Origin: a virus
Strand: one strand, 5' to 3'
Virus record (IMG/VR): IMGVR_UViG_3300025451_000012
Coordinates: 9,671-73,670 of that record
DNA length: 64,000 nucleotides
A program made the translations under genes and the position numbers. The notes beneath the pieces were generated by a model. The model did no database searches, was not told the DNA's origin, and saw only the letters and a list, made by a program, of their open reading frames with translations. This document shows, in pieces, positions 24,285 through 64,000 of this stretch (positions are counted from its first letter, which is position 1; each line of letters starts with the position of its first letter).

Positions 24285-24320
24285 ATAAAAATGAGGGCTT
24301 GTCAAGGCCCTCATTGTTTT
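24285..24320 (-). terminator. intrinsic terminator (ATGAGGGC-TTGTCAAG-GCCCTCAT) downstream of NadV
   Basis: 8-bp stem; A/T runs both sides. Confidence 0.6.
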
Positions 24321-27223: not shown

Positions 27224-28249
27224 TCAAGCTCCAACTGCCCACATGACCATGTCATAGTGGTCTTCAAAACATTCTTCACTACGCACCTCTGCGATAGGAA
27301 CCCATCGTGCTTTTTCAGCATCGTCACTGCCTTTTACTTTTGGCAACTCACCGTCGGGCAATACGATTTTGAAACAGTGTGTGATAATACGACCACGTGG
27401 TGAGCGATCCACAGCATCAAACACACGATTGTCAACAATACTACCGCGCAGTACAGGACCGGGCACTTTGATTAATGTTTCTTCACGCAATTCACGAATA
27501 GCCGCATCCAATACAGTCTTGTCAGTGTTTGCGTTAACATAACCACCGGGCAATGCCCACAAGCCACGACCTGGTTCAGCACGGCGTTTAATCATTAGTA
27601 CATGCCCTGATTGAATCACGACAGCATCCGCAGTAGAGAAAATAGGAGGGTATTTCAAGCTAGAATATTGTTTTGCGTTCTCAATCAAAAACTCACGCTC
27701 ACGGATAACTTGTTCGTATTCTTTGGACTCTTTGAATTGTTCCAAGAAGTCAAAAGTAGTAGGAGGAACAACGTTACGGATAAAATTCATATTCACATCA
27801 CGCTTGAAATACAAACTGCGAATGTCAGTAGCATCAAGTGGCTCTAGCAATTCAACTTCTTCAAAGCCCCATTGAGGGAACATGTCTAAGTAGAATGAGC
27901 TTGGGTCTTTTCTGTGACCGATGATACCAATTTTGTCACCGGGCTTAGTGTGTTTAGCAACCAATGCCTGTACACGAACTGCCCATGCTTGGTCGTTGTA
28001 AATTGTATCTGGGTTAGGTTCTACACTAACTGTTAGTGTACCACTGAAGCCATTTGTGGCATACTTAATCATTTGCCTACGTTCATCAAAGGTAAACGGA
28101 TTCTTATAAGTGCGGGGCTGATTAGCACTACCGCAGATAAAGATCAAATTGTCAGCTAGTGCAGTTGCACGACCTGCCAATAGTAAGTGAGCAGTGTGAA
28201 ATGGTTGAAAGCGTCCAATGAGGACTAGGGTATCGTACTTTTTTGACAT
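27224..28249 (-). CDS. natV: bifunctional NMN adenylyltransferase / Nudix ADP-ribose pyrophosphatase (NadM-Nudix, NatV-like)
   Basis: N-terminal GRFQPFHTAH (HxGH-type nucleotidyltransferase); C-terminal Nudix box GGYVNANTDKTVLDAAIRELREETLIKV. Confidence 0.85.
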   Translation of the reverse strand: MSKKYDTLVLIGRFQPFHTAHLLLAGRATALADNLIFICGSANQPRTYKNPFTFDERRQMIKYATNGFSGTLTVSVEPNPDTIYNDQAWAVRVQALVAKHTKPGDKIGIIGHRKDPSSFYLDMFPQWGFEEVELLEPLDATDIRSLYFKRDVNMNFIRNVVPPTTFDFLEQFKESKEYEQVIREREFLIENAKQYSSLKYPPIFSTADAVVIQSGHVLMIKRRAEPGRGLWALPGGYVNANTDKTVLDAAIRELREETLIKVPGPVLRGSIVDNRVFDAVDRSPRGRIITHCFKIVLPDGELPKVKGSDDAEKARWVPIAEVRSEECFEDHYDMVMWAVGA

Positions 28250-33559: not shown

Positions 33560-34150
33560 TTAAATTCGTTTAGTCAGAATGCTATCAATGAGTCCGTAAT
33601 CTAGTGCAGCTTTTGCACTCATGAAATTGTCACGTTCCATGTCAGCACTGAACTGGTCGAATGTTTTACCGGTACTGTTGTGGTCAACATAGATTTGGGT
33701 CAGCACTTTCTTCATAGCCAAAATCTCAGTAACCTGAATCAGCATGTCAGTTGCTTGACCGCGACTACCGCCCGATGGTTGATGGATCATGTGACGTGCG
33801 TTTGGCAACATCATGCGCTTACCTTTAGCACCTGATGTTGCAAGCAAGCTGCCCATTGAACAGGCTTGACCCATAACGATTGTTTGTACATCGGGCTTGA
33901 TAAACTGCATTGCATCATAGATAGCCATACCCGCAGTCACTGATCCACCCGGACTATTAATGTACATTGAAATGTCTTTGCCACTGTCTTCACTTTCCAA
34001 GAACAATAGCTGGGCAACAATCAGATTTGCCATTTGATCATGCACTTCGCCTTCGAGCAAAATGACTCGGTCACGCAACAAACGACTATAAATGTCATAA
34101 CTGCGCTCACCCTTGCTGGTTGTTTCGATTACGATTGGAACTAAACTCAT
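33560..34150 (-). CDS. clpP: ATP-dependent Clp protease proteolytic subunit
   Basis: catalytic Ser motif [10 protein letters not shown], His in MIHQPSGG; overall ClpP collinearity. Confidence 0.9.
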
Positions 34151-37426: not shown

Positions 37427-37852
37427 ACTCTTTGGCTTCATTTCTTCAGGAAGTTTTCGTTCTAGGTGAAGAGTTAAGATACCGTTAGCATTTTCTGCAT
37501 CTTTGACTTCTACGTGTTCAGCGAGAGTAAACTCACGCACAAAATTCCTATTACTAATACCATGGTGTAGATACTCTTTAGGTTCATCAAAGTTCATGTG
37601 CTTCGTTCCGGTGATGACTAACACCCTATTTTCAATTTGGATATCAATTTCCCCTTCAGTAAACCCAGCAACTGCTAGTTCAATATCAAAGTCATTTTCA
37701 GAACGTTTAACAATGTTATAGGGAGGGTAGTTTGTAGTTGTCTGCCCTGCATTCATTCGCATCAGTTCATCTAACACTGATTCAAACCCAATACCAAACT
37801 TATGAATTGATGGAATATCAATTGAACGTAGCGTTAGTGTTCCATTAGACAT
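37403..37852 (-). CDS. small heat-shock protein (Hsp20/alpha-crystallin, IbpA-like)
   Basis: [23 protein letters not shown]...[12 protein letters not shown] pattern of IbpA/IbpB. Confidence 0.85.
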
Positions 37853-39746
37853 TCTTACTCTCCTTCACTTCTGCATCAACTACGTTATCATCAACCGGTG
37901 CTTCAGTAGCAGATGATTGCTCTGCTGCCTCTGCATCCTGTTTCACCTTAGTAATTGGTCCAATTGCTTCGTACAGTTTGGGAATAGCTTCTTGGATAAC
38001 AGATACGTCTTCACCCTTAACTGCTTCTTCCAATGCTTTGATAGCGTCTTCCGCTAGTGTTTTCTCTTCGGCAGTTACTTTGTCACCATACTTGTCAAAG
38101 TCTTCCTTGAATGTACGTAGTGTACCTTCTGCACTGTTACGTGCTTCAATTAACTCACGTGCCTTCTTATCAGATTCTGCATTAAGTTCAGCGTCTTTAA
38201 CCATTGCTTGAATTTCAGCTTCGGTCAATCCACTATTAGCTTTGATAGTGATCTTATTTTCTTTGCCAGTGTTCTTATCTTTAGCACTTACACTCAAGAT
38301 ACCGTTAGCATCGATGTCCAATGTAACTTCAATCTGAGGCATACCGCGTCTTGCTGGAACAATACCTTCAAGATTGAACTCACCCAATAGTTTATTGAAC
38401 TGTGCTAGCTCACGTTCACCTTGAAATGCTTTGATAGTAACTGCAGGTTGATTATCTTCCGCTGTACTGAATGTTTGACTAGCTTTAGTAGGAATAGTTG
38501 TGTTCTTTTGAATCAACTTACTCATTACACCGCCCATAGTCTCGATACCAAGACTTAGTGGAGTCACATCAAGCAACAATACGTCTTTACGTCCACCACC
38601 TAGCACATCACCTTGAATAGCTGCGCCTGCTGCTACTGCTTCGTCTGGGTTAACATCTTTACGAGGTGCCTTGCCGAAGAATTTCTCAACTGCTTCAACA
38701 ACTTTAGGCATACGTGTCATACCACCGACGAGGATAACCTCGTCAATGTCTGCGTTAGTAACGCCTGCATCTTTCATAGCAATCTTGCATGGCTCAATGC
38801 TACGTAGGATCAATTCTTCAACTAGACTTTCTAGTTTAGAACGATTGATTGTAATGTTCAAATGCTTTGGACCACTTGCATCCGCAGTAACGTAAGGCAA
38901 GTTAACACTAGTGCTTGCAGAACTAGACAATTCAATCTTAGCTTTTTCTGCCGCTTCTTTCAAACGTTGCAATGCAAGCATATCCTTTTTCAAGTCAATG
39001 CCCTGTTCTTGTTTGAATGTATCAACCAAGAAATCCATAATGCGTTGGTCAAAGTCTTCACCACCTAAGAATGTATCACCATTCGTAGACAATACTTCAA
39101 ACTGTTTATCACCATCAACGTCTGCAATTTCAATGATAGATACGTCAAACGTACCACCACCCAAGTCATAGACTGCAATCTTGCGGTCTTTCTTGTCTTG
39201 CTTGTCAACACCGTACGCAAGTGCTGCCGCAGTTGGTTCATTGATAATACGCAACACTTCTAATCCAGCAATACGACCTGCATCCTTAGTTGCTTGACGT
39301 TGACTATCATTAAAGTATGCTGGCACTGTGATAACTGCTTGAGTTACTTCGTGACCAAGATAATCTTCTGCGGTCTTCTTCATCTTACGCAAGACTTCGG
39401 CAGAGATTTGCGGGGGCGCTAGCTTATCTTCGTTGACTTGAACCCAAGCATCACCATTCTCATTCTTGATAATAGTGTATGGCATCAAGTCAATGTCTTT
39501 TTGTACAGCTTGTTCATCAAACTTACGTCCGATCAATCGCTTGCTAGCATAAATTGTGTTTTTGGGGTTTGTAACTGCTTGACGTTTAGCACTTGCACCT
39601 ACCAAGATTTCACCGTTAGCATATGCTACGATACTTGGCGTGGTTCTAGTACCTTCGCTGTTTTCAATTATTTTGGGGATTCCGTTTTCGATGACGGCTA
39701 CGCATGAATTTGTGGTACCTAAGTCGATACCGATGACTTTGCTCAT
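37845..39746 (-). CDS. dnaK: molecular chaperone DnaK (Hsp70)
   Basis: 633 aa; [22 protein letters not shown], full-length Hsp70 collinearity. Confidence 0.95.
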
Positions 39747-39840: not shown

Positions 39841-41049
39841 TTAAATGATAGGAGCCGGGTTTATTACCCGTTCTTTATCAATTAACAGAATTGTTATGTT
39901 GTTTTTCTTATACAACCTAGTGTGAAACATGTGGCACATAAGCACACGTTCAATTTCTGTATGTAAGCCTCTAGCACCAGTCTTCAATAGCAGTGTGTTT
40001 TCTGCCATCTGTTCTAAAGCATCAGTAGTAAATGATAGCTGGATGTTGTCCAAACTTAACAAATACTTATACTGACTAATGTAGTTGTTCTTAACATCAG
40101 TGAGAATATGTACCAATTGCTCTTTATTCAATTCACCAATGCTTACTGTTGTAGTGAAACGTCCGATAAACTCAGGAATCATTCCATATCTAGTTAAATC
40201 ATCAGGACTAACCTTTGTTAGTTCACCTTCAACTTTGCTATCACTGATAGAAGCATGAAACCCAATGCTAGTGCCATTCATACGAGTGGCAATAACATCT
40301 TTCAATCCAACAAAGGCTCCACCTGCGATAAAGAGAATGTCTTTGGTGTTAATTTCTGACATTTCACCACCCGGATGCTTACGTCCACCTTGTGCAGGGA
40401 TACGACAAGTCGTACCTTCTACTAATTTGAGTAGTGCTTGCTGTACACCTTCGCCCGATACGTCACGTGTGATACTAGCACTTTCACCTTTGCGGGCGAT
40501 CTTGTCAATTTCATCAATAAAGATGATACCACGCTCTGCAAGTTTAACATCGCCATCGGCTGCATTGATAAGCATATTAATCATGCTCTCAACGTCATCA
40601 CCTACATAACCTGCTTCGGTCAAACTAGTCGCATCTGCTACGACAAAGGGCACTTTGAGATATTTCGCTGCTGTCTTAGCTAATAGAGTTTTACCACTAC
40701 CAGTAGGACCTACAATGAGAACATTACCCTTTTGAATTTCAATATCTTTTGGTGGATTGTTGATTCGTTTATAATGATTAGCAATAGCTACGCTAAGAAC
40801 CATCTTGGCTTCGTCTTGTCCAATAACATGTTTATCCAAATACTCTTTAATAGCTTCTGGATCATGTACTGGCTCAGGAGGTTCTGCTACACTAACCGAA
40901 GATTCATCTTCAATTAATGTTTGGCATAGATCAACACAGTCATTGCAAATAGCAATGCCCTCACCGACGATTAGTTTCTTTACAGCGTCTTTACTGTTGC
41001 CACAAAAGTTGCAATGGTCTATTAAATTATGGTCTTCGTTCATATTCAT
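39841..41049 (-). CDS. clpX: ATP-dependent Clp protease ATP-binding subunit ClpX
   Basis: N-terminal C4 zinc finger CNFCGN...CNDCVDLC; Walker [14 protein letters not shown]; ClpX collinearity. Confidence 0.9.
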
Positions 41050-56067: not shown

Positions 56068-56096
56068 ATTATAGTCGTATATTTAAAAAATGTCAA
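56068..56096 (-). promoter_or_regulatory. early promoter (- strand) upstream of rnh
   Basis: ATTATA-17-TGTCAA. Confidence 0.6.
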
Positions 56097-56097
56097 G

Positions 56098-56541
56098 TTA
56101 AATTTGTTCCAAATACTTGTCAGGATCATCGTTGATGCCCGAAAAGATATTAGTTGGGCTGAATGGGAGAAATTCTTTTTTCACTCTATAAATTTCAGGG
56201 TAGCTAACTTTAGCTCTTGTCTCTACAATATCTACTATACGTTCTCCGTCAATTTTAGATTCATCATGGAACCATTCTAATCTTTTCTCAAACAAGACCA
56301 ATAGTTGATCGCCGTACTCATTTTTGAGATAGTCTTCAAGTGCAGAAATTTCACTTGCCCTGCCGTAATAAAGATAATCAAATGTTTGAGTTTTGTTAAT
56401 ACTAGGGAGTATGTAATTTTTTACCAAATAGTTTTTGATGTTAGCATTTTTGATGTGCTTACCGAACCCCCATAAATCTGACTGATGATGATGCAATACA
56501 TACAACCAGCCGCACTTGTTAGGAAGAACTATATTAGGCAT
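56098..56541 (-). CDS. T5orf172/GIY-YIG-like domain protein
   Basis: N-terminal GWLYVLHHHQSDLWGFGKH resembles T5orf172 GYVYVL..KIG motif; tentative. Confidence 0.4.
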   Translation of the reverse strand: MPNIVLPNKCGWLYVLHHHQSDLWGFGKHIKNANIKNYLVKNYILPSINKTQTFDYLYYGRASEISALEDYLKNEYGDQLLVLFEKRLEWFHDESKIDGERIVDIVETRAKVSYPEIYRVKKEFLPFSPTNIFSGINDDPDKYLEQI

Positions 56542-57727
56542 TTTTTACTGCGTCAATAACATCAACTGCGTCCAAATAATTGTAAAGGTCATACCCATTG
56601 TAGTTAAAATCATTCGCATCGTTGGTCAGTGGATGAGATCCATGCAAGTTTTGATAAATTTTCAAAACAATAGCCAAAGCACAATTAGTTGAATTAAGTT
56701 TGTGATTTTTGATGTTAGGATATGCGTCAGTATGCCATGCAACGTGTGCTGCTTCTGTTTCTTTACGCAAGGTAGACAAATCAGTGAAACACTTTTTAAT
56801 GATAGCGTGAAAGTTATCCAAAAACTCACTCCATTGAGGACCGGTCATTGGGATATGTTTGGCTTTCATATTATCATACAAGTGACCATACAAGCCGTAC
56901 GCAGCACTATCAAATTTTGTGCCATGCCAGTATTTTTTGTGCGTACCCATAATAAAGTCAAGTGTCTTTAATTTCCAATTGTATATCGGGTCAACCCGAT
57001 CCAATGTACCTGCTTTGCCGCGTTGCGAATGATTTGCTTGGACAGGGATTGCTTCGTGCTTTTCGCAAATAGCTTGACGCTTTTCAGCATCCACATAAGT
57101 TTTATCTGTGGAATTATGTTGACGAACACCTACAACTTTGATTCGGTGAAAATCAAAGCCGGTCCATTTCTTTTGACCTTTACCATTTCGGTGATAGGCA
57201 GCTTCGTTGGCAAATGCTGTATCTGTGTTGTTAACAATAAAGAACGGGAATTCAAAGTCTTCCCATTTGGTCGGGTCTACCCCGTCCCACAAGCCATGCT
57301 TTGCAAATAATCCAACTACGTTAATGCCGTGTTGAGTATCAAATGAGGGATTAGTTTTACCGTCTGCGCTGACAGTAGCAAATACAGGGCTCAGTAACTC
57401 TTCCTGACAACCATTCATAATATCAGCTACGTGCTTTGCAATTACGAGTCGTTGGGTTTCTTCCAAGAAAGTTGCTCGTCCAATCTTTTGATTTTTGAAT
57501 ACGCCGATTTTGGCTGGATTAAACGTTTTGCCACGCTTTTTCAAATCTGCTAATACGTTAGCAACGAGAGGATTCTTTTCAAGCTCCGCTACTGATTGTG
57601 CTAATGTTTTAGGCTTTGCTGACTTCAACCGTTTACTATCAAGTGGATTTTTGATTTTTGAGATATCAACTAGCTGACCTTTTGGTACATCGGTCCAGGG
57701 AAATATGAATGCTATTTTAGTTGCCAT
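56534..57727 (-). CDS. conserved hypothetical protein (397 aa), possible nucleic-acid-modifying enzyme
   Basis: ORF track; own early promoter. Confidence 0.55.
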   Translation of the reverse strand: MATKIAFIFPWTDVPKGQLVDISKIKNPLDSKRLKSAKPKTLAQSVAELEKNPLVANVLADLKKRGKTFNPAKIGVFKNQKIGRATFLEETQRLVIAKHVADIMNGCQEELLSPVFATVSADGKTNPSFDTQHGINVVGLFAKHGLWDGVDPTKWEDFEFPFFIVNNTDTAFANEAAYHRNGKGQKKWTGFDFHRIKVVGVRQHNSTDKTYVDAEKRQAICEKHEAIPVQANHSQRGKAGTLDRVDPIYNWKLKTLDFIMGTHKKYWHGTKFDSAAYGLYGHLYDNMKAKHIPMTGPQWSEFLDNFHAIIKKCFTDLSTLRKETEAAHVAWHTDAYPNIKNHKLNSTNCALAIVLKIYQNLHGSHPLTNDANDFNYNGYDLYNYLDAVDVIDAVKNA

Positions 57728-57759: not shown

Positions 57760-57788
57760 ATTATAGCACCAAATTCATTAAATGTCAA
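57760..57788 (-). promoter_or_regulatory. early promoter (- strand)
   Basis: ATTATA-17-TGTCAA. Confidence 0.6.
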
Positions 57789-57795
57789 CCTTTTA

Positions 57796-58284
57796 TCAAC
57801 TTACTTCGGTTCTACCGTCGCCTAAGTCTTTAGTATTCATTTTTCGCAAGTCTCGGGCGTCTCGGTTCTCCGGATCCGCTTGGGCCTGCTCATAGACTTC
57901 TAAAGCTACGTTGCGGCATACGCTCTGAAACCATCGGTCAATGATGTCCGATTCTTTGTCGTTCTCTTTCATCTGGTAACCAACACGACTGAGATTCAAA
58001 ATGAACTTCTCATTCCAGTCTAGTTCGAAGGAACCTGCATTGATATTGTCTGGATCGACTTCCATGCTGAGAATATTGACATAGGGTTCACCTGCTAATG
58101 TAGCTTTTTCTTTAGCAGTAAGTTCCTTCTCAACCTTTTCAACCTTCTTTTCTTTGGGCTTGCGAGGTTTCTTCACCTTTACGGGCGCAGGCTCTGCAAC
58201 AGCAACGACAATGGGTTCGACTACTGGATCAGGCTTTTTAGAGAATAGGGTTTTTAGTTTGTTTAGCATTATTGTATGTATCAT
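57796..58284 (-). CDS. hypothetical protein with Pro/Val/Lys-rich basic N-terminal region
   Basis: ORF track. Confidence 0.5.
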   Translation of the reverse strand: MIHTIMLNKLKTLFSKKPDPVVEPIVVAVAEPAPVKVKKPRKPKEKKVEKVEKELTAKEKATLAGEPYVNILSMEVDPDNINAGSFELDWNEKFILNLSRVGYQMKENDKESDIIDRWFQSVCRNVALEVYEQAQADPENRDARDLRKMNTKDLGDGRTEVS

Positions 58285-59272
58285 AAAGTTTGAAGCTGGC
58301 TAAGTTTTTAGCTTTGCTTTCGCACATCATGTCAAAATTTTCATAGAAAGTCAGTGCCCAATCGTTCACTGCGTCATTCCAGTAATAGTCACTGTGTGCC
58401 CGTAGTTTTTGTTTATTGTGTCCTGCTGCAATCAGCGCGCCATGATCGGGTAGTTGTGCAACGGAATGACCTGTGAGTACATCTTCGCGGCTAACACTGT
58501 AATGGCAAGTAGGGCGAACGCCACGCCAAGAATCAATAACCCGTTGTACAATCGCATCATTAGGTTGAACGTATTCTCCCTCACGAATCCAATTATGGTG
58601 AATGTCCATGACCGTAGGGACGAGGTCAGATAACGATAAGCAGTCAAGTAGTCCATGTGTGTATTCTTCATTCTCTAGTGTAAGTGTGTTGCGGGCTTCG
58701 GGTGACAAACGATTGTATACATCACGAATGCCCTGCGGACCTTTACGACCACTGATGTGTACATTAACTTTGAAGTCTTGAAATGTCTTGCCATAGCCCA
58801 TCCAACGAACCATGTCAGTATGATATTCAAATTCTCTGATACTGTTATTTACTACTTCTTCACGGTCGCTTGCTAAAACTACAAACTGGTCAGGGTGAAA
58901 CGAAAGACGAACATCATTGGCTCGTGCAGTCTCACCGATGGGCGCAAACCAATGTGCTAGCTTGTTTTGAATGTCAGTGTCTTGCCAGAAACCTTGCCAG
59001 TCGGGATGTGTGTAGAATGAAAGCATGTCACTAGTAAGACGAACCATGCGTAGTTCGGGTCGCAGTGAGGCGACACGCTTGACCAGATTGTGAGTATGCA
59101 GGATGTTGCGTTTTGCAACTTCAATGATTTTTTCTTCTGCTACTGACTTACTTTGACGCTTTGCCCAGGCAAGAGTTGTGCCACCTGTGTTTAGTTCGGG
59201 TATACTAGATACCTCACCCTTGCTATTGATTTCAGAAAATTTGCAGGCAAAGCCGATACGTTTAATAGTCAT
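58238..59272 (-). CDS. uvdE: UV damage endonuclease (UvdE/UVDE family, TIM-barrel)
   Basis: RIGFACKF, LENEEYT, RAHSDYY segments parallel Bacillus UvsE (RLGYVCI, LENDDKT, RSHADYV). Confidence 0.75.
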   Translation of the reverse strand: MTIKRIGFACKFSEINSKGEVSSIPELNTGGTTLAWAKRQSKSVAEEKIIEVAKRNILHTHNLVKRVASLRPELRMVRLTSDMLSFYTHPDWQGFWQDTDIQNKLAHWFAPIGETARANDVRLSFHPDQFVVLASDREEVVNNSIREFEYHTDMVRWMGYGKTFQDFKVNVHISGRKGPQGIRDVYNRLSPEARNTLTLENEEYTHGLLDCLSLSDLVPTVMDIHHNWIREGEYVQPNDAIVQRVIDSWRGVRPTCHYSVSREDVLTGHSVAQLPDHGALIAAGHNKQKLRAHSDYYWNDAVNDWALTFYENFDMMCESKAKNLASFKLYDTYNNAKQTKNPIL

Positions 59273-59301
59273 AAGTCATCCATAAATATTGAGTAGAACG
59301 T

Positions 59302-59330
59302 ATCATAACACAAAGATGTTTAATTGTCAA
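59302..59330 (-). promoter_or_regulatory. early promoter (TTGACA-17-TATGAT, - strand) inside 3' end of epimerase gene, upstream of uvdE
   Basis: sequence. Confidence 0.5.
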
Positions 59331-60150
59331 CCTTTAACAATTCGTCCATAGTATAGAGGTTCCTCATGTAAGGTGACACGTCTTCTAATACCGAACTAGC
59401 AATGTCGCCCTTTCTTCTAGGACCATATTTCACATCAAAGTCAACATCATTGACGATCTGGAACTTGTCTACAATTTCTTGCACAGTGTATCCCACACCA
59501 TGCCCTAATGATTCAACACTGTTGCTAGGCTTCTCAATTGCTGTACGTAATGCATCACAGATTTCATTCACGTGAACATAGTCACGCACACACGTACCGT
59601 CACTGCTGATATCATAGTCTTTACCAAAGATAGTAAATTCACCTGTCTCTTTAGCTCTCAATAGATTGTACATCAGTCCGTCTGGATTTGTCGGGGCAAA
59701 GCCATCACTACCGATCACATTGTAGAATCTAAAGATAGTGTATGGAGTAACCTTGTGCTGAGTACAATATTCACGAACCACATCTTCTGCTGCTCTTTTG
59801 CTGATTCCATATGCTGACTCACAACTGACTGCGGCGCCGGTACTAGCAAATATAAAGTTCTTTGTCTTTATTTTACTTAGTACATTCATTGTGCCGTTCA
59901 AGTTAGTGATATAGTAACTCAGTGGTTTCAATTCACTCTCGCCTACGTTCACTAATGCAGCTAAATGAATGACTGCATCGTATTCGTAGTGAAGTTCAAA
60001 CAACCTACGAATGTCAATAATATGCTGCTTGTCAACATCAATTTTGTTAGGCACTAAATCTAGCCCGTGAATCTCGTATTCACCCTTCAACATCTTAGTA
60101 AGATGCGAACCGATGTAACCTGAGTTACCTGTAATCAAAATCTTTTTCAT
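59320..60150 (-). CDS. NAD-dependent nucleotide-sugar epimerase/dehydratase (extended SDR)
   Basis: Rossmann motif ITGNSGYIGSHL; catalytic YGISK (YxxxK). Confidence 0.75.
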   Translation of the reverse strand: MKKILITGNSGYIGSHLTKMLKGEYEIHGLDLVPNKIDVDKQHIIDIRRLFELHYEYDAVIHLAALVNVGESELKPLSYYITNLNGTMNVLSKIKTKNFIFASTGAAVSCESAYGISKRAAEDVVREYCTQHKVTPYTIFRFYNVIGSDGFAPTNPDGLMYNLLRAKETGEFTIFGKDYDISSDGTCVRDYVHVNEICDALRTAIEKPSNSVESLGHGVGYTVQEIVDKFQIVNDVDFDVKYGPRRKGDIASSVLEDVSPYMRNLYTMDELLKVDN

Positions 60151-61508
60151 GCGAATTCAAACAGACTTGCGCCTGTTACTTCCTCTACTGGTTTAAATGT
60201 TGGGTCTTTGCTTAAGTATGTGTCATTGTCAGTGTACCAAACATTGATAAACTTGTACTTGTTTGACAACACACTTTCAAAGTCTTCTCGTGCCAAATGC
60301 TTGCGATTCAACTGAGAAATGTAATCACGATACTTGATTGTCTCGTAAGTGTTAATCTTTGCGGCTGATGTATTACTACGCTTACCAACAAAGTTATCTA
60401 GAAAACTTACCCAACCATGTGCAACTTGGTCGTCTAGTTCACGTACATAGTCCAGTGCCTCCGTACTTTGTATTGATCCGTACACTGCGTTAATTGTCTC
60501 TGCTACATTCTTGACATTTACTTTATGAAAATATTTTTCATCAAAATTATCTGACCAATCTTGATTGTCTAATACTACGCATGGCATGTGACCAAGACAT
60601 TCCAAGAAAGCAAAAGGATAGTTCTCACGCAGACTTGGCATAAAGAACACACTAGAACTTGTGATAAAGTCTACTTTTTCTTGACCAGTGATGCCCGCTT
60701 TGATTTCATAATCAATAATACCTGCATCAGCAAACGCTTTCTCAAACTTCTTTGCACCATTGCTGTTAGTCATTACTTTGCAAGGAAGTTGTGCTTCTTT
60801 CATTGCACGAATATATGCATCTGGGTTCTTGCCTTCTTCCCAACGACCAATGAATAACACCCCACTTCGCTTAGTAACATTGTGTTCTAATAGACCACGC
60901 TCACTCATAGGCATGCGTAGAAGTGCGGTATTTGTCGCGCCGTACTTTGTTAACTCATCTATATTCTTTTGACTTTGTGTTCCGATGACGATATCAGTAA
61001 ACTCCATATGCTTGTTATAGAAATTATGATAGCTATCTAAGAACACATCGCTACCCTGACTATCACGAAAAATCATTGAATGTAAGTGGGTGTAGAATAT
61101 CACAGGGATATACTTGTTAATAGTCATAGCATAGGCAGCAGTCATTGCTTCCTGCGTATTACACACCACCATGTCATATACGTTTTCTTCAAATGCTTCT
61201 AGTAATGCTTTGCGAAAGTTGATAATCTTTTCAAAGTTGATGGTATCACTAAACGCAAAGGTAGCAGTGTGGTCACTGTACTTTAGTGGTTCAAGTGGCC
61301 ATACTAGATTTGCGCCTGCATTTTTAATAACTGTGTCAAAGGTACCAGTAGGCGCTTTGTCTAAGATAATGTCAACTTTCCAATTCAATCGGCCACACAT
61401 TTCTGTAAAACTCTTACAGAAGGAACCAATTCCACCGTGGGGGATAAAGTGTTGGTCACTTATTAAGAATGCAATTCGTTTGCTGTATAATTTCATTATT
61501 TTACCCAT
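60147..61508 (-). CDS. GT-B fold glycosyltransferase (GT4-like)
   Basis: C-terminal E-x7-E motif ENYPFAFLE; N-terminal HGGIGSF sugar-acceptor domain pattern. Confidence 0.6.
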   Translation of the reverse strand: MGKIMKLYSKRIAFLISDQHFIPHGGIGSFCKSFTEMCGRLNWKVDIILDKAPTGTFDTVIKNAGANLVWPLEPLKYSDHTATFAFSDTINFEKIINFRKALLEAFEENVYDMVVCNTQEAMTAAYAMTINKYIPVIFYTHLHSMIFRDSQGSDVFLDSYHNFYNKHMEFTDIVIGTQSQKNIDELTKYGATNTALLRMPMSERGLLEHNVTKRSGVLFIGRWEEGKNPDAYIRAMKEAQLPCKVMTNSNGAKKFEKAFADAGIIDYEIKAGITGQEKVDFITSSSVFFMPSLRENYPFAFLECLGHMPCVVLDNQDWSDNFDEKYFHKVNVKNVAETINAVYGSIQSTEALDYVRELDDQVAHGWVSFLDNFVGKRSNTSAAKINTYETIKYRDYISQLNRKHLAREDFESVLSNKYKFINVWYTDNDTYLSKDPTFKPVEEVTGASLFEFA

Positions 61509-61756
61509 TTCTTGTAATAGTCAATAAACTTTACTCGGTCTTCTATATCCGATATATGTTCTTCTACGTGCGTAGTGAACCGTGCTATGCACTTGTCAAC
61601 TGATAATATTTCTAAGAGGCTTATATCAAATTCAGGAAGTTTAACCGCATCAATCACAATAGTAATACCATGAATAGTGCCTCTACCAGTTAGAGGTACT
61701 TTTAATACTGCACCCATGTCATTGTCTATAATTCTAGTTGCAATCATGTGCCCCAC
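61496..61756 (-). CDS. hypothetical protein
   Basis: ORF track. Confidence 0.4.
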   Translation of the reverse strand: MGHMIATRIIDNDMGAVLKVPLTGRGTIHGITIVIDAVKLPEFDISLLEILSVDKCIARFTTHVEEHISDIEDRVKFIDYYKKWVK

Positions 61757-62592
61757 TCGTTCTTAAACAATGGCACCTGTAGTCTATCACTATAACGCCA
61801 GCCACGATTCATTGCTGCGATTGCAACATTCTTAGCATTTAGATTGTATAGTGATTCTACCCCACCGCATGGCATCAAGTAAATATGACCCTTGAATCCT
61901 TTACGCTTGTATGCTAACACTGTATCCTCAGCTTCTTTCACATCGGATTCAGTTGCTACTACAAACTTGAGATACACCGAGCCATAGTTTTGATATTGAT
62001 TGATCACATCGGGAATGATAGCATCTTCTGTTTTCTCACCGCTGATAGACAACTTTGGACTGACACTAAATGTGACCGAATGTTTCATTCTCATCTTTTG
62101 CCAGTCATGCAAGTACTGTCCAAACTCAGGTGTAATCATCTGAGTACCGTTTGTTTCAAATGTTAGTTCTTGCAAACCCTTCATTCTCTCATGCGAAAGT
62201 AATTCAGGATACGCTCTTTGCCAACCAAGAAGCGGTTCGCCACCCGTGATAACCAAGTGTTCATCGAGCCAACGATGTCCAGGCAGTAAATCACAAATGC
62301 TGTTAGCAATAGTATCGGAATCGAGCACAGGACTAAGATGTTTGAAACGAGGGTCCCAAGATGCATAAGAATCACAACCCGTGCTGACAAGTGGTAAGGA
62401 TTTATAATCCGTGTAATCTTCTGCCTTAACCGCAATAATATCTCTTTCATTACTCATTTCTCCCTTGGCCATACCAAAGCCACCGCATGTAAAATTGCAT
62501 CCGTATGTTCTAAGAAACACGGAGGGAACACCCATGTACTTCCCTTCACCCTGAATGCTATAGAACAACTCACTAATTTTTAATTTACTCAT
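61744..62592 (-). CDS. queE: 7-carboxy-7-deazaguanine synthase-like radical SAM protein (QueE family) with atypical Cys spacing
   Basis: N-terminus ELFYSIQGEGKYMGVPSVFLRTYGCN mirrors QueE (FQTLQGEGYFTGVPAIFIRLQGC); Cys cluster CNFTC...(~30 aa)...C. Confidence 0.7.
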   Translation of the reverse strand: MSKLKISELFYSIQGEGKYMGVPSVFLRTYGCNFTCGGFGMAKGEMSNERDIIAVKAEDYTDYKSLPLVSTGCDSYASWDPRFKHLSPVLDSDTIANSICDLLPGHRWLDEHLVITGGEPLLGWQRAYPELLSHERMKGLQELTFETNGTQMITPEFGQYLHDWQKMRMKHSVTFSVSPKLSISGEKTEDAIIPDVINQYQNYGSVYLKFVVATESDVKEAEDTVLAYKRKGFKGHIYLMPCGGVESLYNLNAKNVAIAAMNRGWRYSDRLQVPLFKNEWGT

Positions 62593-63071
62593 TATTGAAA
62601 CTCGTTATCTTCTCTACGACCTTGACGACCTGCCATGTTGTTATCTGTCTCACGCACTTCAACCCGTGTACACCAAACTCGTTCAGCTTCTGCACTGCCA
62701 CAGCTTGGCAAGAAAATTGTATTAACATATTCATACAAGAAGTCAGCAATGCCTTCGCATCCTGTCTTTTCTACTTCTGTAATCTTCGCTAGTTTCAGTT
62801 TACCCAAGTTAAGTAATTCTTCACGCATTGGGTCATCTTGTGCAACTAATAATGTGTGATCAAACCAATCTTCTAGCAATGCTTTGAGTGGCTTTAGTCC
62901 ACCAAAGTCAGTTACCCAGTTTCGTGCGTCTAGGGTGTCTGCTTCAAATTCAAAATGAAACGACATTGCATAACCGTGAATTAGATTGCAATGACTATCT
63001 GCACGCCATTGACGATAAGCAACTGGTCCAATCTGCTTGTATGTTTTTGTACTGAAATATTTCTTTGACAT
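62592..63071 (-). CDS. queD: 6-carboxy-5,6,7,8-tetrahydropterin synthase (QueD / PTPS family)
   Basis: HCNLIHGYAMSFHFEF (CxxxHGH-type zinc motif, HGY variant) and DFGGLKPL...DHTLL parallel E. coli QueD. Confidence 0.7.
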   Translation of the reverse strand: MSKKYFSTKTYKQIGPVAYRQWRADSHCNLIHGYAMSFHFEFEADTLDARNWVTDFGGLKPLKALLEDWFDHTLLVAQDDPMREELLNLGKLKLAKITEVEKTGCEGIADFLYEYVNTIFLPSCGSAEAERVWCTRVEVRETDNNMAGRQGRREDNEFQ

Positions 63072-63147
63072 TATTTTTCCTATGTTATATTATATCATAG
63101 GCAGCAGAATTTGTAAAGCGGGATGATGCCCTAAAAGGCCGCTACTC

Positions 63148-63606
63148 TTATTTACCTTTTTGTGCTTCCACTACTCTTTTTCTCAAGCTACTAGAGCTAA
63201 AAGAGTGGTCACGTCCATTGAACACTAATTCAATGTTTCTTTGGGCACAGATATCTTTGCCCGTAAATTCTTTGTCTCTGTACTCTACACCCAAAATGCG
63301 AACATCAATAGGTAGTGTGAGTAAGATATCTTCAAGGTCCTTCTCGGTGTTGTAGACTACGATTTCATCTACAAACCTTACAGCACTTAAACTAATCTGT
63401 CTTTCAACGATACTTTGAATAGGTTCGTTCTTTTCAGGACGATCCCATTGAGCATTGTTTTGCAGTGCAGCAATAAGATAATCACAATGGTTCTTAGCTT
63501 GACTAAGCATTGCAATGTGACCGGCGTGAAGTAGGTCAAATTGGGAAAAAGTTATCCCAATCTTTAATCCTTTATCTTTTAGTTCTTTGATCTTATTGAA
63601 TATCAT
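63148..63606 (-). CDS. cytidylyltransferase-like nucleotidyltransferase (TagD / RfaE-domain-II-like)
   Basis: HxGH motif FDLLHAGH and downstream RFVDEIVVY resemble glycerol-3-phosphate cytidylyltransferase. Confidence 0.55.
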   Translation of the reverse strand: MIFNKIKELKDKGLKIGITFSQFDLLHAGHIAMLSQAKNHCDYLIAALQNNAQWDRPEKNEPIQSIVERQISLSAVRFVDEIVVYNTEKDLEDILLTLPIDVRILGVEYRDKEFTGKDICAQRNIELVFNGRDHSFSSSSLRKRVVEAQKGK

Positions 63607-63796
63607 TTTTAGCCTTGTTTATCGCATCTTTCATTCTAACTTCGTGTTCTCTTTCAGAGATACTAAGTTGATGTAATCTATCTGCACAACTACGAATGTC
63701 TTCACTCAATTGACCGGTGCCTACTTCTGTCTCTACAGTACAGGCAACTTCATGTAATGCTATTACTGCATCAACTAATTCAAGATTTCTCATCAT
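63593..63796 (-). CDS. hypothetical protein
   Basis: ORF track. Confidence 0.4.
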   Translation of the reverse strand: MMRNLELVDAVIALHEVACTVETEVGTGQLSEDIRSCADRLHQLSISEREHEVRMKDAINKAKNDIQ

Positions 63797-63989
63797 CGTT
63801 CTCCGGTAGTATCTCTGTTAATTCGTCAAATCCAACACCGTCAGTTAGGTGATACTCTTTGCCTGCATGATGATACACTGTAGTCCAAGTATGTTGATTG
63901 TTACTTGTGTCAGTGGGTTTAATGAGCCTGAACACAGTTAACATATGTTCTTTCTCAACTCCCTCAATGATTCTACAAGACGGCCCCAT
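63780..63989 (-). CDS. hypothetical protein (window edge)
   Basis: ORF track. Confidence 0.35.
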   Translation of the reverse strand: MGPSCRIIEGVEKEHMLTVFRLIKPTDTSNNQHTWTTVYHHAGKEYHLTDGVGFDELTEILPENDDEKS

Positions 63990-64000
63990 TACATCACGTA

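Follow-up and report, generated by a model that had tools for sequence, protein, structure and literature searches.

Sugar-transfer genes in a putative QueC-less 7-deazaguanine DNA-modification cluster of a phage

QueD and QueE homologues lie in one phage locus beside a glycosyltransferase (GT), a GalE-like SDR, a nucleotidyltransferase and UvdE. This raises the question of whether these genes together make a glycosylated deazapurine in DNA, or whether an unrelated glycan module adjoins the deazaguanine genes. The window, that is, the whole 64,000-nucleotide stretch analysed, derives from a large uncultured phage.

Gene layout and transcription units

The region 58238-63606 on the minus strand contains seven intact genes; those named in the initial annotation are real, and none is truncated. 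The features are as follows:

63593..64000, minus strand: small ORFs c113 (63593-63796) and c31 (63780 to the window end), from cluster assignment and gene order
63148..63606, minus strand: HxGH nucleotidyltransferase, cytidylyltransferase-like, 152 aa; PF01467 1.8e-9, which clears the gathering score
63089..63117, minus strand: predicted sigma70-like promoter, TTTACA-17-TATAAT with TG, within the 76 nt between QueD and the nucleotidyltransferase; 11/12 consensus positions
62592..63071, minus strand: QueD-like 6-carboxy-tetrahydropterin synthase, 159 aa; PTPS 8.4e-16, phrog_2389 7.5e-43
61744..62592, minus strand: QueE, 7-carboxy-7-deazaguanine synthase, 282 aa; phrog_2076 4.3e-53
61496..61756, minus strand: small ORF (orf86), 86 aa, GTG start; no family match
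60147..61508, minus strand: GT-B/GT4-type retaining glycosyltransferase, 453 aa; EX7E motif, structure model, Foldseek
59320..60150, minus strand: GalE-like extended SDR, 276 aa; PF01370 1.2e-33, TIGR01179 8.3e-46
59302..59330, minus strand: predicted sigma70-like promoter, TTGACA-17-TATGAT with TG, just upstream of UvdE; 11/12 consensus positions
58238..59272, minus strand: UvdE UV-damage endonuclease, 344 aa; PF03851 1.3e-37, phrog_8420 1.3e-79

The PTPS, PF01370 and PF01467 matches anticipated by the initial annotation were found, and the Glycos_transf_1 match of the GT (7e-5) fell below the Pfam gathering score. The QueE assignment was borne out by phrog_2076; the NCBIfam QueE models matched at 1e-10 to 9e-16, every one below its own cut-off.

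The reading frames overlap by 1 nt (QueD/QueE), 13 nt (QueE/orf86), 13 nt (orf86/GT) and 4 nt (GT/SDR), the SDR start overlapping the GT stop. Judged by consensus match, strong promoter-like sites were present only before QueD and before UvdE. Read from the sequence, QueD to SDR is a single overlapping block delimited by predicted promoters. The orf86 slot is variable: other small ORFs occupy it in relatives, and tblastn found an orf86 homologue in just 2 loci. More than 80 independent viral contigs from metagenomes show the arrangement again, so it is not a chance juxtaposition. The small ORFs c113 and c31 are syntenic markers, located between FolE and the nucleotidyltransferase in four relatives (L018, L035, L036 and L048).

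The deazaguanine pathway and its partner genes

The QueD of the window has the Cx3HGY motif of phiST QueD and is 70% identical to ACP17 QueD. The radical-SAM cysteines of QueE are arranged as C32-x3-C36-x36-C73, and Cys32, Cys36 and Cys73 are invariant in 55/55 homologues. A tblastn search of the whole 64 kb window for QueC, QueF, FolE, DpdL, four DpdA types, c11 and a PRT gave no match at E<=0.2, in agreement with the earlier remark that QueC and DpdA are absent from the window.

The initial annotation had suggested that partner genes might lie beyond the window. Among GT-positive loci with enough flank, FolE was upstream in 62/63, a second GT4 (c11) in 52/53 and DpdL in 26/32. The DpdA-like gene c23 was present in 23 loci. 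No QueC was found in any GT-positive locus, and it was seen only in sister lineages without the GT. From synteny with relatives, we infer that FolE, c11, DpdL and a TGT/DpdA-like gene lie just past base 64000 of this genome. The suggestion stands for FolE and the TGT/DpdA-like gene, but QueC is not to be expected there.

DpdL was assigned by the LxxxHRHxF signature of PMC10516641, which the DpdL of relatives carries, and by tblastn matches to ACP17 (57%) and phiST CGPG_00067 (34%). The c23 protein contains the motifs DSGGFQ, HxLG and FDCxxP, and a chain of homology leads from it through GR7B_00174 (Pfam TGT 2.3e-5, CxCxxC motif) and ACP17 gp123 to an X1 protein annotated as 'queuine tRNA-ribosyltransferase'. 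A c23 homologue lies beside QueF, QueC and FolE in Vibrio phage 2.275.O. The AlphaFold model of a c23-type protein was of low quality (pLDDT 56), and its TIM-barrel matches were no more than weak. Motifs and transitive homology indicate that c23 is probably a divergent TGT/DpdA-like transglycosylase.

The dDG (2'-deoxy-7-deazaguanine) system of the Cellulophaga phage phiST consists of FolE, QueD, QueE, DpdL and DpdA3, and phiST replaces its G with dDG (Hutinet et al. 2023, PMC10516641). The present clade resembles phiST in the QueC-less gene set, the QueD motif, a QueE insertion that separates the second cluster cysteine from the third, the DpdL homologue of relatives (34% identity), and the position of the cluster, which has the DNA polymerase gene on one side and further replication genes on the other. 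Unlike the window, phiST has no glycosyltransferase, SDR or nucleotidyltransferase, and its DpdA3 (259 aa) has no detectable similarity to c23 (roughly 490 aa). The phages ACP17 (Acidovorax), X1 and BUDD (Xanthomonas), PA5oct (Pseudomonas jumbo) and BUCT-ZZ01 (Synechococcus) carry FolE, QueD, QueE, DpdL and a TGT-like gene, with a c11-type GT4 beside DpdL in every one. ACP17 FolE is 62% identical to a relative's FolE. PA5oct has the backbone order polymerase, DpdA-like, GT4, DpdL, QueE, w162-like and exonuclease in common with the clade, and its DNA is restriction-resistant, which was interpreted as modification of G (PMC12191111). No nucleoside chemistry is published for these five phages, PA5oct being known only for this resistance. 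DpdL and DpdA of ACP17 gave no dDG in E. coli.

On these comparisons, the assignment of QueD and QueE to a phage 7-deazaguanine DNA-modification pathway with partner genes past the window end holds up. The pathway is of the type seen in phiST and ACP17 (PMC10516641), which leads from CDG to 7-deazaguanine (dDG), and not a preQ0, dG+ or dADG route; dPreQ0 and dG+ were among the nucleosides that the initial annotation proposed to look for. Relatives carry DpdL and a divergent TGT-like gene, and QueC occurs only in GT-less sister lineages.

QueD and QueE could also be auxiliary metabolic genes that raise the host's supply of queuosine/tRNA precursors while the phage DNA stays unmodified. In PHROGs, both families have the category 'moron, auxiliary metabolic gene and host takeover', and no transglycosylase is present in the window. 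However, preQ0 is impossible without QueC, relatives carry DpdL and DpdA-like genes alongside, phiST with the same gene set has dDG for G, and the restriction resistance of PA5oct DNA follows a pattern interpreted as modified G. We consider this explanation very improbable.

The sugar-transfer genes and their possible acceptor

The AlphaFold model of the GT (pTM 0.78) has a GT-B fold, and Foldseek matched it to HepE, GlgM, MshA, BshA and WbnH with E values of 6e-11 to 1e-8 (GT4 enzymes, about 1e-10). E295 and E303 of its EX7E motif are invariant, both glutamates also in distant homologues, and the protein is extended by about 80 aa at its C-terminus. The SDR, which is short at its C-terminus, shows the GxxGxxG and YxxxK motifs in its translation. 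The nucleotidyltransferase has an HxGH motif and matched RfaE domain II (2.9e-18), TagD (3.3e-14) and phrog_7878 (7.6e-29).

A GT homologue was present in 81/81 related loci, which were retrieved with the GT itself as query, and the SDR comes after it in 77/81. All three genes were present in 60 loci and absent in 18, and 12 loci were mixed. GT, SDR and nucleotidyltransferase look, as the initial annotation proposed, like a donor-making and sugar-transferring trio, and in sequence comparisons they behave as an accessory module that co-varies as a unit. Sister lineages with 66–70% identical QueE have none of the three, so deazaguanine can be made without the module.

We propose, with a probability of roughly 0.55, that the block forms the promoter-distal half of a 7-deazaguanine DNA-modification island of the DpdL type, which lacks QueC and has a built-in accessory nucleotide-sugar module, and that the sugar is most likely put on modified DNA. 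Judging by homology and motifs, QueD and QueE convert the FolE product into 7-carboxy-7-deazaguanine (CDG). By analogy with phiST, DpdL (a proposed CDG decarboxylase) and the TGT/DpdA-like enzyme would decarboxylate the base to 7-deazaguanine and exchange it for guanine in DNA after replication. Domains, co-variation and operon structure suggest that the HxGH nucleotidyltransferase would make an NDP-sugar, the GalE-like SDR would epimerise it and the GT4 would transfer the sugar. QueD, QueE, GT and SDR, with their overlapping frames, would be co-transcribed. The acceptor may be a deazaguanine-derived base in the phage DNA or a first sugar set by the core GT4 c11, the latter modelled on the second glucose that T2 and T6 add to glucosyl-hydroxymethylcytosine. 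If so, a strain-variable sugar decoration would change recognition by host nucleases.

The sugar-transfer genes within the deazaguanine cluster suggest a possible sugar-decorated form of this DNA modification. Glycosylated deazaguanine DNA is plausible, and the first interpretation of the locus is partly supported overall. Between a glycosylated deazapurine and an unrelated glycan module, comparative genomics favours the link: two different gene orders place the GT within the cluster, and DpdL almost always has a second GT4 as its neighbour, in many cases together with a GalE-like gene. The two orders are QueE-GT-SDR and QueE-FolE-GT-DpdA-DpdL-c11, the latter in L110, L166 and the cultured cyanophage BUCT-ZZ01. 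The c11-type GT4 adjoins DpdL in 47/48 independent loci that were collected with DpdL as the starting point; 27 of them also have a GalE-like SDR in their flanks.

In T-even phages, hydroxymethylcytosine is glucosylated by alpha- and beta-glucosyltransferases, with a second glucose in T2 and T6. The parallel is that the base is modified first and a GT-B enzyme adds sugar after replication, and that sugar and linkage differ by strain under host-nuclease pressure. The T-even enzymes, in contrast, are of different GT families and act on a hydroxymethyl group of a pyrimidine; their UDP-glucose comes from the host, the phage encoding no donor pathway. 7-Deazaguanine offers no hydroxyl, which counts against a glycosylated base. 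GT-B enzymes can decorate 7-deazaguanine derivatives at a side-chain hydroxyl or the 2-amino group: mannosyl- and galactosyl-queuosine occur in eukaryotic tRNA, the mannosyltransferase being the GT4-family GTDC1, and huimycin and dapiramicin are sugar-bearing natural products derived from preQ0. These differ from the present case in being tRNA constituents or free metabolites, and they need preQ0/queuosine side chains, which are out of reach for a pathway lacking QueC. We found no description of DNA that contains a sugar-bearing deazapurine.

Further points count against the proposed DNA glycosylation. FolE, DpdL and DpdA are placed in this genome by synteny and not seen, and phiST makes dDG without any GT. 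The usual acceptors of GT4 enzymes are sugars, lipids, small molecules and proteins, and no known DNA glucosyltransferase, T-even enzymes included, was among the top 50 fold matches of the GT. Window-GT homologues are present in BUCT-ZZ01, X1 and BUDD; in X1 and BUDD (27% identity) the gene is unlinked to the deazaguanine cluster, about 40 kb away beside NAD-salvage genes. ACP17 and PA5oct are without the window-type GT, SDR and nucleotidyltransferase. A 26% GT homologue occurs in the Erwinia phages pEa_SNUABM_1 and _17, which are absent from the DpdL and c11 match lists and have no QueE match listed.

The nucleotidyltransferase, GT4 and SDR may instead be non-DNA cargo in an early-region insertion hot spot, glycosylating virion proteins or remodelling a host envelope glycan, with QueD and QueE serving only plain dDG. 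The unlinked GT in X1 and BUDD fits this, as do the Erwinia phages, in which the searches run showed no deazaguanine genes, and the close sister lineages without the module, where w162 and the exonuclease directly follow QueE. The structural neighbours of the GT are polysaccharide, LPS and small-molecule GT4s, and virion-structural matches lie nearby (w162 to phrog_13349; PA5oct gp160 and gp170, annotated structural). GT alleles about 43% identical share one slot between flanks about 70–79% identical. This allele replacement counts in favour of the main explanation, and surface-interaction genes typically show it too. Against it, two independent gene orders place the GT within deazaguanine clusters, in BUCT-ZZ01 between FolE and the DpdA-like gene; it overlaps its neighbours in the same unit, delimited by predicted promoters, as QueD and QueE; distant phages have a paralogous GT4 and GalE-like SDR arrangement with DpdL; and a single pattern-based scan across genomes of bacteria and archaea yielded no confirmed homologue. 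Non-DNA cargo is possible but, on this evidence, less likely than the main explanation.

The product could also be a soluble glycosylated metabolite, either a deazapurine glycoside like actinomycete huimycin and dapiramicin, or a pterin glycoside like cyanobacterial tetrahydrobiopterin glucoside (FolE, PTPS, reductase, BGluT-like GT). On paper, FolE, a PTPS-fold enzyme, an SDR and a GT4 fit the biopterin-glucoside pathway. Tetrahydrobiopterin glucosyltransferases are among the GT fold matches (9v0l at rank 30, 5ze7 at rank 44), and BUCT-ZZ01 infects Synechococcus elongatus PCC 7942, the source of the 5ze7 enzyme. Yet these BGluT matches are not better than dozens of other GT4s. Sepiapterin reductases are of the classical SDR type, whereas the SDR here is an extended GalE-type nucleotide-sugar enzyme (TIGR01179 8e-46). 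With QueE, DpdL and the TGT-like gene, the pathway is committed to deazaguanine and nucleic-acid base exchange, and PA5oct DNA itself was read as G-modified (PMC12191111). A soluble product is very improbable.

UvdE and neighbouring cargo

The interval also takes unrelated cargo: UvdE, the Pyr_excise-like c46, a GP88-family gene, a Bax-inhibitor (BI-1) homologue, a class II aldolase and a DAO-type oxidoreductase. This fits an insertion hot spot and speaks for non-DNA cargo, against the main explanation. UvdE, which scored 120 bits against the TIGR00629 cut-off of 124, does adjoin the block as described earlier but is not a member of it, because it has its own strong sigma70-like predicted promoter and because in 9 relatives c46, with a weak Pyr_excise (pyrimidine-dimer glycosylase) match, replaces it between GT/SDR and w162. 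UvdE is thus a separate, independent putative UV-repair unit. Its rarity in phages was confirmed, with homologues in 118/50,697 phage records.

Organisation of the deazaguanine and sugar genes

The interval 58238–63606 contained seven contiguous minus-strand ORFs, none of which was degraded.

Genes of the interval 58238–63606 (coordinates, strand, product, length, family matches)
63148–63606, minus strand, HxGH nucleotidyltransferase, 152 aa; PF01467 1.8e-9, RfaE domain II 2.9e-18, TagD 3.3e-14
62592–63071, minus strand, QueD, 159 aa; PTPS 8e-16, phrog_2389 7.5e-43
61744–62592, minus strand, QueE, 282 aa; phrog_2076 4e-53
61496–61756, minus strand, small ORF (orf86), 86 aa; no family match
60147–61508, minus strand, glycosyltransferase (GT), 453 aa; Glycos_transf_1 7e-5 (below gathering score)
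59320–60150, minus strand, GalE-like SDR, 276 aa; PF01370 1.2e-33, TIGR01179 8e-46
58238–59272, minus strand, UvdE, 344 aa; PF03851 1.3e-37

The initial annotation had read QueD and QueE here, clustered with a GT4 glycosyltransferase, an SDR epimerase, a cytidylyltransferase and UvdE. This description was correct, since all seven ORFs were found undegraded, the motifs and family matches agreed, and the QueE, QueD and GT motifs and the GT fold checked out. Pseudogenes were ruled out because all motifs were intact. Every junction from QueD to the SDR overlapped (by 1, 13, 13 and 4 nt). The only strong same-strand sigma70-like sites within the interval were at 63117–63089, in the gap before QueD, and at 59330–59302, just before UvdE. 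The overlaps and the positions of these predicted promoters suggest a single unit of QueD, QueE, orf86, GT and SDR, with UvdE as a separate one. An Rfam scan of 56–64 kb detected no riboswitch (e.g., preQ1) at E ≤ 1.

QueD and QueE were both full length, with intact motifs common to the phage phiST (Cx3HG[H/Y] and three cluster cysteines). The radical-SAM cysteines of QueE (C32, C36 and C73) were invariant in 55/55 homologues. The QueE motif is split (C32-x3-C36-x36-C73) by a lineage-specific insert of 36 residues between the second and third cysteines, which is also present in the phages X1 and PA5oct, whereas this spacing is x7 in phiST and the canonical x2 in ACP17. QueD of the window carries Cx3HGY instead of the canonical Cx3HGH, and the HGY variant was also found in phiST and BUCT-ZZ01. 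In a multiple alignment, a tyrosine also takes the place of the first histidine that ligates zinc in E. coli QueD. The variant is probably functional, and its metal binding may be different. The SDR has both the N-terminal GxxGxxG and the catalytic YxxxK. It matched TIGR01179 at 8.3e-46, but with 156 bits, below the cut-off of 262, and its C-terminus is about 50 aa shorter than that of GalE; by its motifs it is assigned to the GalE/extended SDR family.

UvdE matched PF03851 with 130 bits (cut-off 24) and phrog_8420 at 1.3e-79, and its TIGR00629 score was borderline (120.4 against a cut-off of 124.45). Only 118 of 50,697 phage records contained homologues, and jumbo phages of Erwinia, Aeromonas, Vibrio and Dickeya made up most of them; this agrees with the earlier remark that UvdE is rare in phages. 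Nine relatives had a protein with a weak match to Pyr_excise (pyrimidine-dimer glycosylase) in the place of UvdE, between GT/SDR and the window ORF w162. UvdE was rejected as a member of the module because it has its own predicted promoter and a different gene occupies its place in some relatives. Its position has the look of a slot in which UV-repair genes are exchanged, which would make sense for phages of aquatic habitats, and it seems unconnected with the modification genes.

Gene order in relatives and the type of deazaguanine pathway

The 64 kb window was searched by tblastn with QueC, QueF, FolE, DpdL, four kinds of DpdA/TGT-like protein, a second GT4 (c11) and a phosphoribosyltransferase, and nothing was found. 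Pfam analysis of the larger window ORFs also showed no TGT, QueC, FolE or thymidylate-synthase-like protein. These results confirm the earlier observation that no QueC or DpdA-like gene is visible in the window. A megablast of 56–64 kb gave no DNA-level match among GenBank phages.

The ORFs of 80 loci were clustered to compare gene order (clusters are prefixed c, and window ORFs are prefixed w). The conserved order was DNA polymerase – c45 – c36 – c23 – (c30) – c16 – c21 – c11 – ... – FolE – c15 – (c31) – nucleotidyltransferase – QueD – (variable genes) – QueE – (small ORFs) – GT – SDR – (GP88-like gene, opposite strand) – UvdE – w162 – (w397, w147) – exonuclease. The cluster in which the window ends is c31. 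In the nearest relatives by gene content (loci L008, L036 and L048), one or two small genes separate this point from FolE, beyond which come c11, c16 and c23. Among loci that carry the window-type GT (GT-positive) and have enough upstream DNA, FolE was present in 62/63, c11 in 52/53 and c16 in 26/32, the last counted in relatives with at least 8 kb of upstream flank. FolE of locus L029 matched Pfam at 1.9e-61. From synteny, FolE of this phage would lie within approximately 1 kb past base 64000. All four public contigs shown with an identical nucleotidyltransferase (L084–L087; nine were read) start within 250 nt upstream of it (~63606–63850), which points to a recurrent assembly break between FolE and the nucleotidyltransferase, caused by a repeat, microdiversity or hypervariability. 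The terminal small ORF of the window was absent from public records.

The signature LxxxHRHxF, replacing CxxxHGH, marks DpdL, a QueD paralogue (Hutinet et al., PMC10516641) proposed as the decarboxylase of the QueD/QueE product CDG. Most members of c16 carry LxxxHRHxF (LENEHRHLF in BUCT-ZZ01), and c16 matched DpdL of ACP17 (57%), gp166 of PA5oct (62%) and CGPG_00067 of phiST (34%). On these grounds c16 is assigned as DpdL.

The c23 protein (approximately 490 aa) has the motifs DSGGFQ, HxLG and (I/M)xFDCxxP, which we take to be the counterparts of three elements of Zymomonas TGT: the Asp102 loop, the MGVG strand and the 'MFDCVLP' motif with Asp280. It is homologous to GR7B_00174 of a Vibrio phage, which has a Pfam TGT match (2.3e-5) and a CxCxxC zinc motif. 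GR7B_00174 in turn matched gp123 of ACP17, an X1 protein annotated 'queuine tRNA-ribosyltransferase' and a protein of Achromobacter phage Motura annotated 'tRNA guanine transglycosylase'. In Vibrio phage 2.275.O, a c23 homologue lies beside QueF, QueC, Gat and FolE. Searches of Pfam, PHROG and PDB with c23, and of PDB with c23 profiles, gave no direct match, and its AlphaFold model was poor (pLDDT 56), with weak TIM-barrel matches. An hhalign comparison of the c23 profile, which is shallow (Neff 1.4), with DpdA3 of phiST and the DpdA-like protein of BUCT-ZZ01 found nothing beyond DSGG. The TGT assignment thus comes from motifs, transitive homology and gene context, by which c23 is probably a TGT/DpdA-like transglycosylase. 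The backbone of PA5oct resembles that of the window clade: polymerase – gp168 (c23-like) – gp167 – gp166 (DpdL) ... gp162 (QueE) – gp160 – gp159 (exonuclease).

QueC, QueF and Gat were found only in five loci without the window-type GT (GT-negative), three of which also carry a phiST-type DpdA3. Since c16 is assigned as DpdL, c23 is probably DpdA-like, and QueC, QueF and Gat are confined to GT-negative loci, the predicted pathway is QueC-less: GTP → CPH4 → CDG → (DpdL) 7-deazaguanine, inserted by DpdA, as in phiST. In phiST, dDG replaces dG (PMC10516641). A preQ0, dG+ or dADG pathway was rejected because QueC, Gat-QueC and QueF are lacking. The initial annotation had looked towards a preQ0 route and had listed UvdE with the cluster, next to the block; the preQ0 route and a membership of UvdE were abandoned, and the combination of a deazaguanine pathway with a trio of sugar genes was retained. 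Some deazaguanine clusters also contain a purine phosphoribosyltransferase and a GMP-reductase/IMPDH-like gene (e.g., L081:7119–7706 and L025:3174–4250), whose putative role could be to recycle the guanine freed by base exchange.

Two glycosyltransferases and their probable link to the deazaguanine genes

The AlphaFold model of the window GT showed a GT-B fold (pTM 0.78), and the nearest structures in Foldseek were the GT4 enzymes HepE, GlgM, MshA, BshA and WbnH (probability 1.0). The EX7E glutamates (E295-x7-E303) were invariant, even among homologues of only 20–44% identity. The Glycos_transf_1 score was 22.8 bits, under the gathering cut-off of 26.4, and precomputed PF00534 matches were found on several homologues 81–86% identical to the window GT. 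The GT is a divergent member of GT4. No similarity to the T4-type DNA glucosyltransferases was seen: no alpha-GT or beta-GT was among the top 50 PDB fold matches, and sequence searches gave no match to them. PDB sequence searches with the GT and with its profile found nothing significant (best profile match, E = 0.05), and none of its close homologues pointed to a sugar donor or acceptor. A pterin-glycoside pathway (FolE, PTPS, sepiapterin reductase and BGluT) was rejected because the SDR is of the extended GalE type, QueE is present and DpdL accompanies these genes in relatives; BGluT structures ranked 30th and 44th among the fold matches of the GT, no better than generic GT4s. An hmC/hmU acceptor appears less likely, since, within the window, the scanned ORFs of at least 196 aa had no thymidylate-synthase or hydroxymethylase match. 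Protein pI was uninformative as a clue to DNA binding because DpdA-like proteins are acidic too.

Relatives of the GT numbered more than 100 in IMG/VR and 1,880 in a large protein collection, and they form at least four subfamilies. No homologue was confirmed in bacterial and archaeal genomes scanned with the GT alignment, and viral contigs searched with the GT of BUCT-ZZ01 yielded no match. When loci L094, L095, L097, L099, L100 and L105 were compared with the window, the GT alleles in the slot between QueE and SDR were only about 43% identical. The QueE and SDR flanking these variant alleles were about 62–79% identical to those of the window (medians about 70%), alike in both allele groups. 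This suggests cassette-like replacement or diversifying selection at the GT slot. In one close relative, a gene of the S-AdoMet lyase family (PF23780; L086:3797–4372) follows the GT in the place of the SDR. S-AdoMet lyase is a known type of anti-restriction function.

The second glycosyltransferase, c11, is a real GT4. Its copy in X1 exceeded the gathering score of Glycos_transf_1 (8e-12), and conserved features include the R-x3-EK-x-P motif and the glutamate of the catalytic region. The copies of the window clade, BUCT-ZZ01, ACP17, X1, BUDD and PA5oct are mutually homologous.

Copies of c11 (locus and coordinates, source)
L048:4039–5250, window relative
L092:8992–10020, ACP17 gp124
L093:8947–10107, X1
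L089:10617–11678, PA5oct gp167
L001:10690–11856, BUCT-ZZ01

The c11 genes of the window clade and BUCT-ZZ01 were 67% identical at the DNA level. In five cultured phages, c11 lies beside DpdL or within approximately 1.6 kb of it, and in most of them a DpdA-like gene is adjacent. Eighty IMG/VR loci were retrieved with a DpdL alignment, and counts were made on the 48 independent loci that had 3 kb or more of flank on each side. A c11-type GT4 was present in 47/48, a c23-type DpdA-like gene in 43/48 and a GalE-like SDR in the flanks of 27/48; the SDRs read as examples were full length (311–327 aa) and downstream of c11. The median gap between DpdL and c11 was 605 nt (66 loci with both genes). The text of the paper that defined DpdL mentions no glycosyltransferase (PMC10516641). 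The counts suggest that GT4 and GalE-like genes accompany DpdL more widely, an association that had gone unremarked. At each deazaguanine cluster seen with the window-type GT, c11 was present too.

The link between the window-type GT and the deazaguanine genes was weighed against a reading in which GT, SDR and nucleotidyltransferase are unrelated glycan cargo in an insertion hot spot. Among 100 IMG/VR loci with adequate flanks, the three genes were all present in 60, all absent in 18 and mixed in 12. In sister lineages whose QueE is 66–70% identical, w162 and the exonuclease come directly after QueE, and GT, SDR and UvdE are all missing, which speaks against a link. The interval also gathers unrelated genes, including a GP88-family gene, a Bax-inhibitor homologue, a class II aldolase, a GDSL hydrolase, a DAO-type oxidoreductase and a GMP-reductase-like gene. 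The GT homologue of X1 and BUDD (27%) is unlinked to the cluster and adjoins NAD-salvage genes, and Erwinia phages pEa_SNUABM_1 and _17 carry a 26% homologue with no deazaguanine genes found in the searches run. However, a second, different gene order, QueE-FolE-GT-DpdA-DpdL-c11, also places the GT within a deazaguanine cluster; it was seen in L110, L166 and BUCT-ZZ01, a cultured cyanophage with a GT 41% and a QueE 49% identical to those of the window. QueD to SDR also form an overlapping unit behind one predicted promoter. Overlapping junctions, the shared predicted promoter, co-variation, the second gene order and allele replacement are evidence for the link, and unrelated cargo is the main rival and the less likely reading.

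Proposed modification pathway and other genes of the window

Our preferred reading, to which we give a probability of roughly 0.55, is a deazaguanine island of the phiST/ACP17 type in which a co-varying nucleotide-sugar module is embedded. The supply of CDG by QueD and QueE is supported by their homology. Synteny and the phiST precedent suggest that base conversion and insertion into phage DNA would fall to DpdL and a DpdA-like enzyme. Domains, co-variation and predicted co-transcription suggest that the nucleotidyltransferase and epimerase would provide an NDP-hexose, which the GT4 would transfer. We speculate that the acceptor may be the modified DNA, perhaps by way of a sugar that c11 has attached beforehand. 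A sugar-on-sugar acceptor would suit a GT4, since the usual GT4 acceptors are sugars, and the c11-first scheme would fit the presence of c11 at each deazaguanine cluster seen with the window-type GT. There is a real chemical difficulty, because 7-deazaguanine has no hydroxyl. Candidate linkages would be N2, O6 and the electron-rich C7 or C8; the carboxylate of CDG would be another, provided that DpdL has not acted beforehand. DNA glycosylation specifically is put forward as a tentative idea. An equally tentative, more detailed version is that DpdL-type phages go beyond plain 7-deazaguanine: the core c11, often with a GalE-like epimerase nearby, would add a sugar to a deazaguanine-derived DNA base, and in the window lineage the second, fast-evolving GT4 with its own nucleotidyltransferase and epimerase would extend or vary this sugar.

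To our knowledge, the known 7-deazaguanine DNA modifications all have small side chains and none has a sugar, and the known glycosylated DNA bases are all pyrimidines. A literature search found no report of a sugar-bearing deazaguanine in DNA. The version with c11, if true, would be the first sugar-bearing purine hypermodification of DNA. If the GT4s act on DNA, they would represent a new class of purine hypermodification, relevant to how phages evade restriction and modification-dependent nucleases and to the enzymatic labelling of DNA. DpdL and DpdA of ACP17 alone gave no product in E. coli, and dDG reconstitution failed (PMC10516641); base glycosylation could also explain this failure. Cultured phages with the genes exist, which makes the idea open to testing at present: ACP17 and PA5oct have c11 only, and X1, BUDD and BUCT-ZZ01 have both GT4s. 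If the glycosyltransferases are unrelated cargo, the finding shrinks to one more example of the phiST-type pathway, from a clade of large phages that is abundant and uncultured.

Pfam analysis of the larger window ORFs also identified Hsp70, ClpX, ClpP, NAMPT, an NMNAT-Nudix protein, DNA ligase and a 5'-3' exonuclease. No tRNA genes were found in the window. ClpP (33560–34150), a full-length Hsp70/DnaK (37845–39746; PF00012 7.7e-255) and ClpX (39841–41049) lie close together, which we believe to be an unusual chaperone/protease set for a phage. NAMPT (24319–25752) and the NMNAT-Nudix fusion (27224–28249) are NAD-salvage genes, and the equivalent NAD genes of Xanthomonas phage X1 lie directly beside its homologue of the window GT.

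Promoter-like sites in 54–64 kb numbered 44, compared with 26 ± 5 expected from shuffles. Two intergenic minus-strand sites (56068–56096 and 57760–57788) had a perfect 12/12 sigma70 consensus (TTGACA-17-TATAAT). A basic protein of 397 aa (56534–57727; pI 9.1) had no Pfam, PHROG, NCBIfam or PDB match, and a PDB sequence search with it gave nothing significant. It is paired with a 147-aa ORF (56098–56541) behind the perfect site at 57788–57760; the pair was found in about 30 relatives and was missing or replaced in others.
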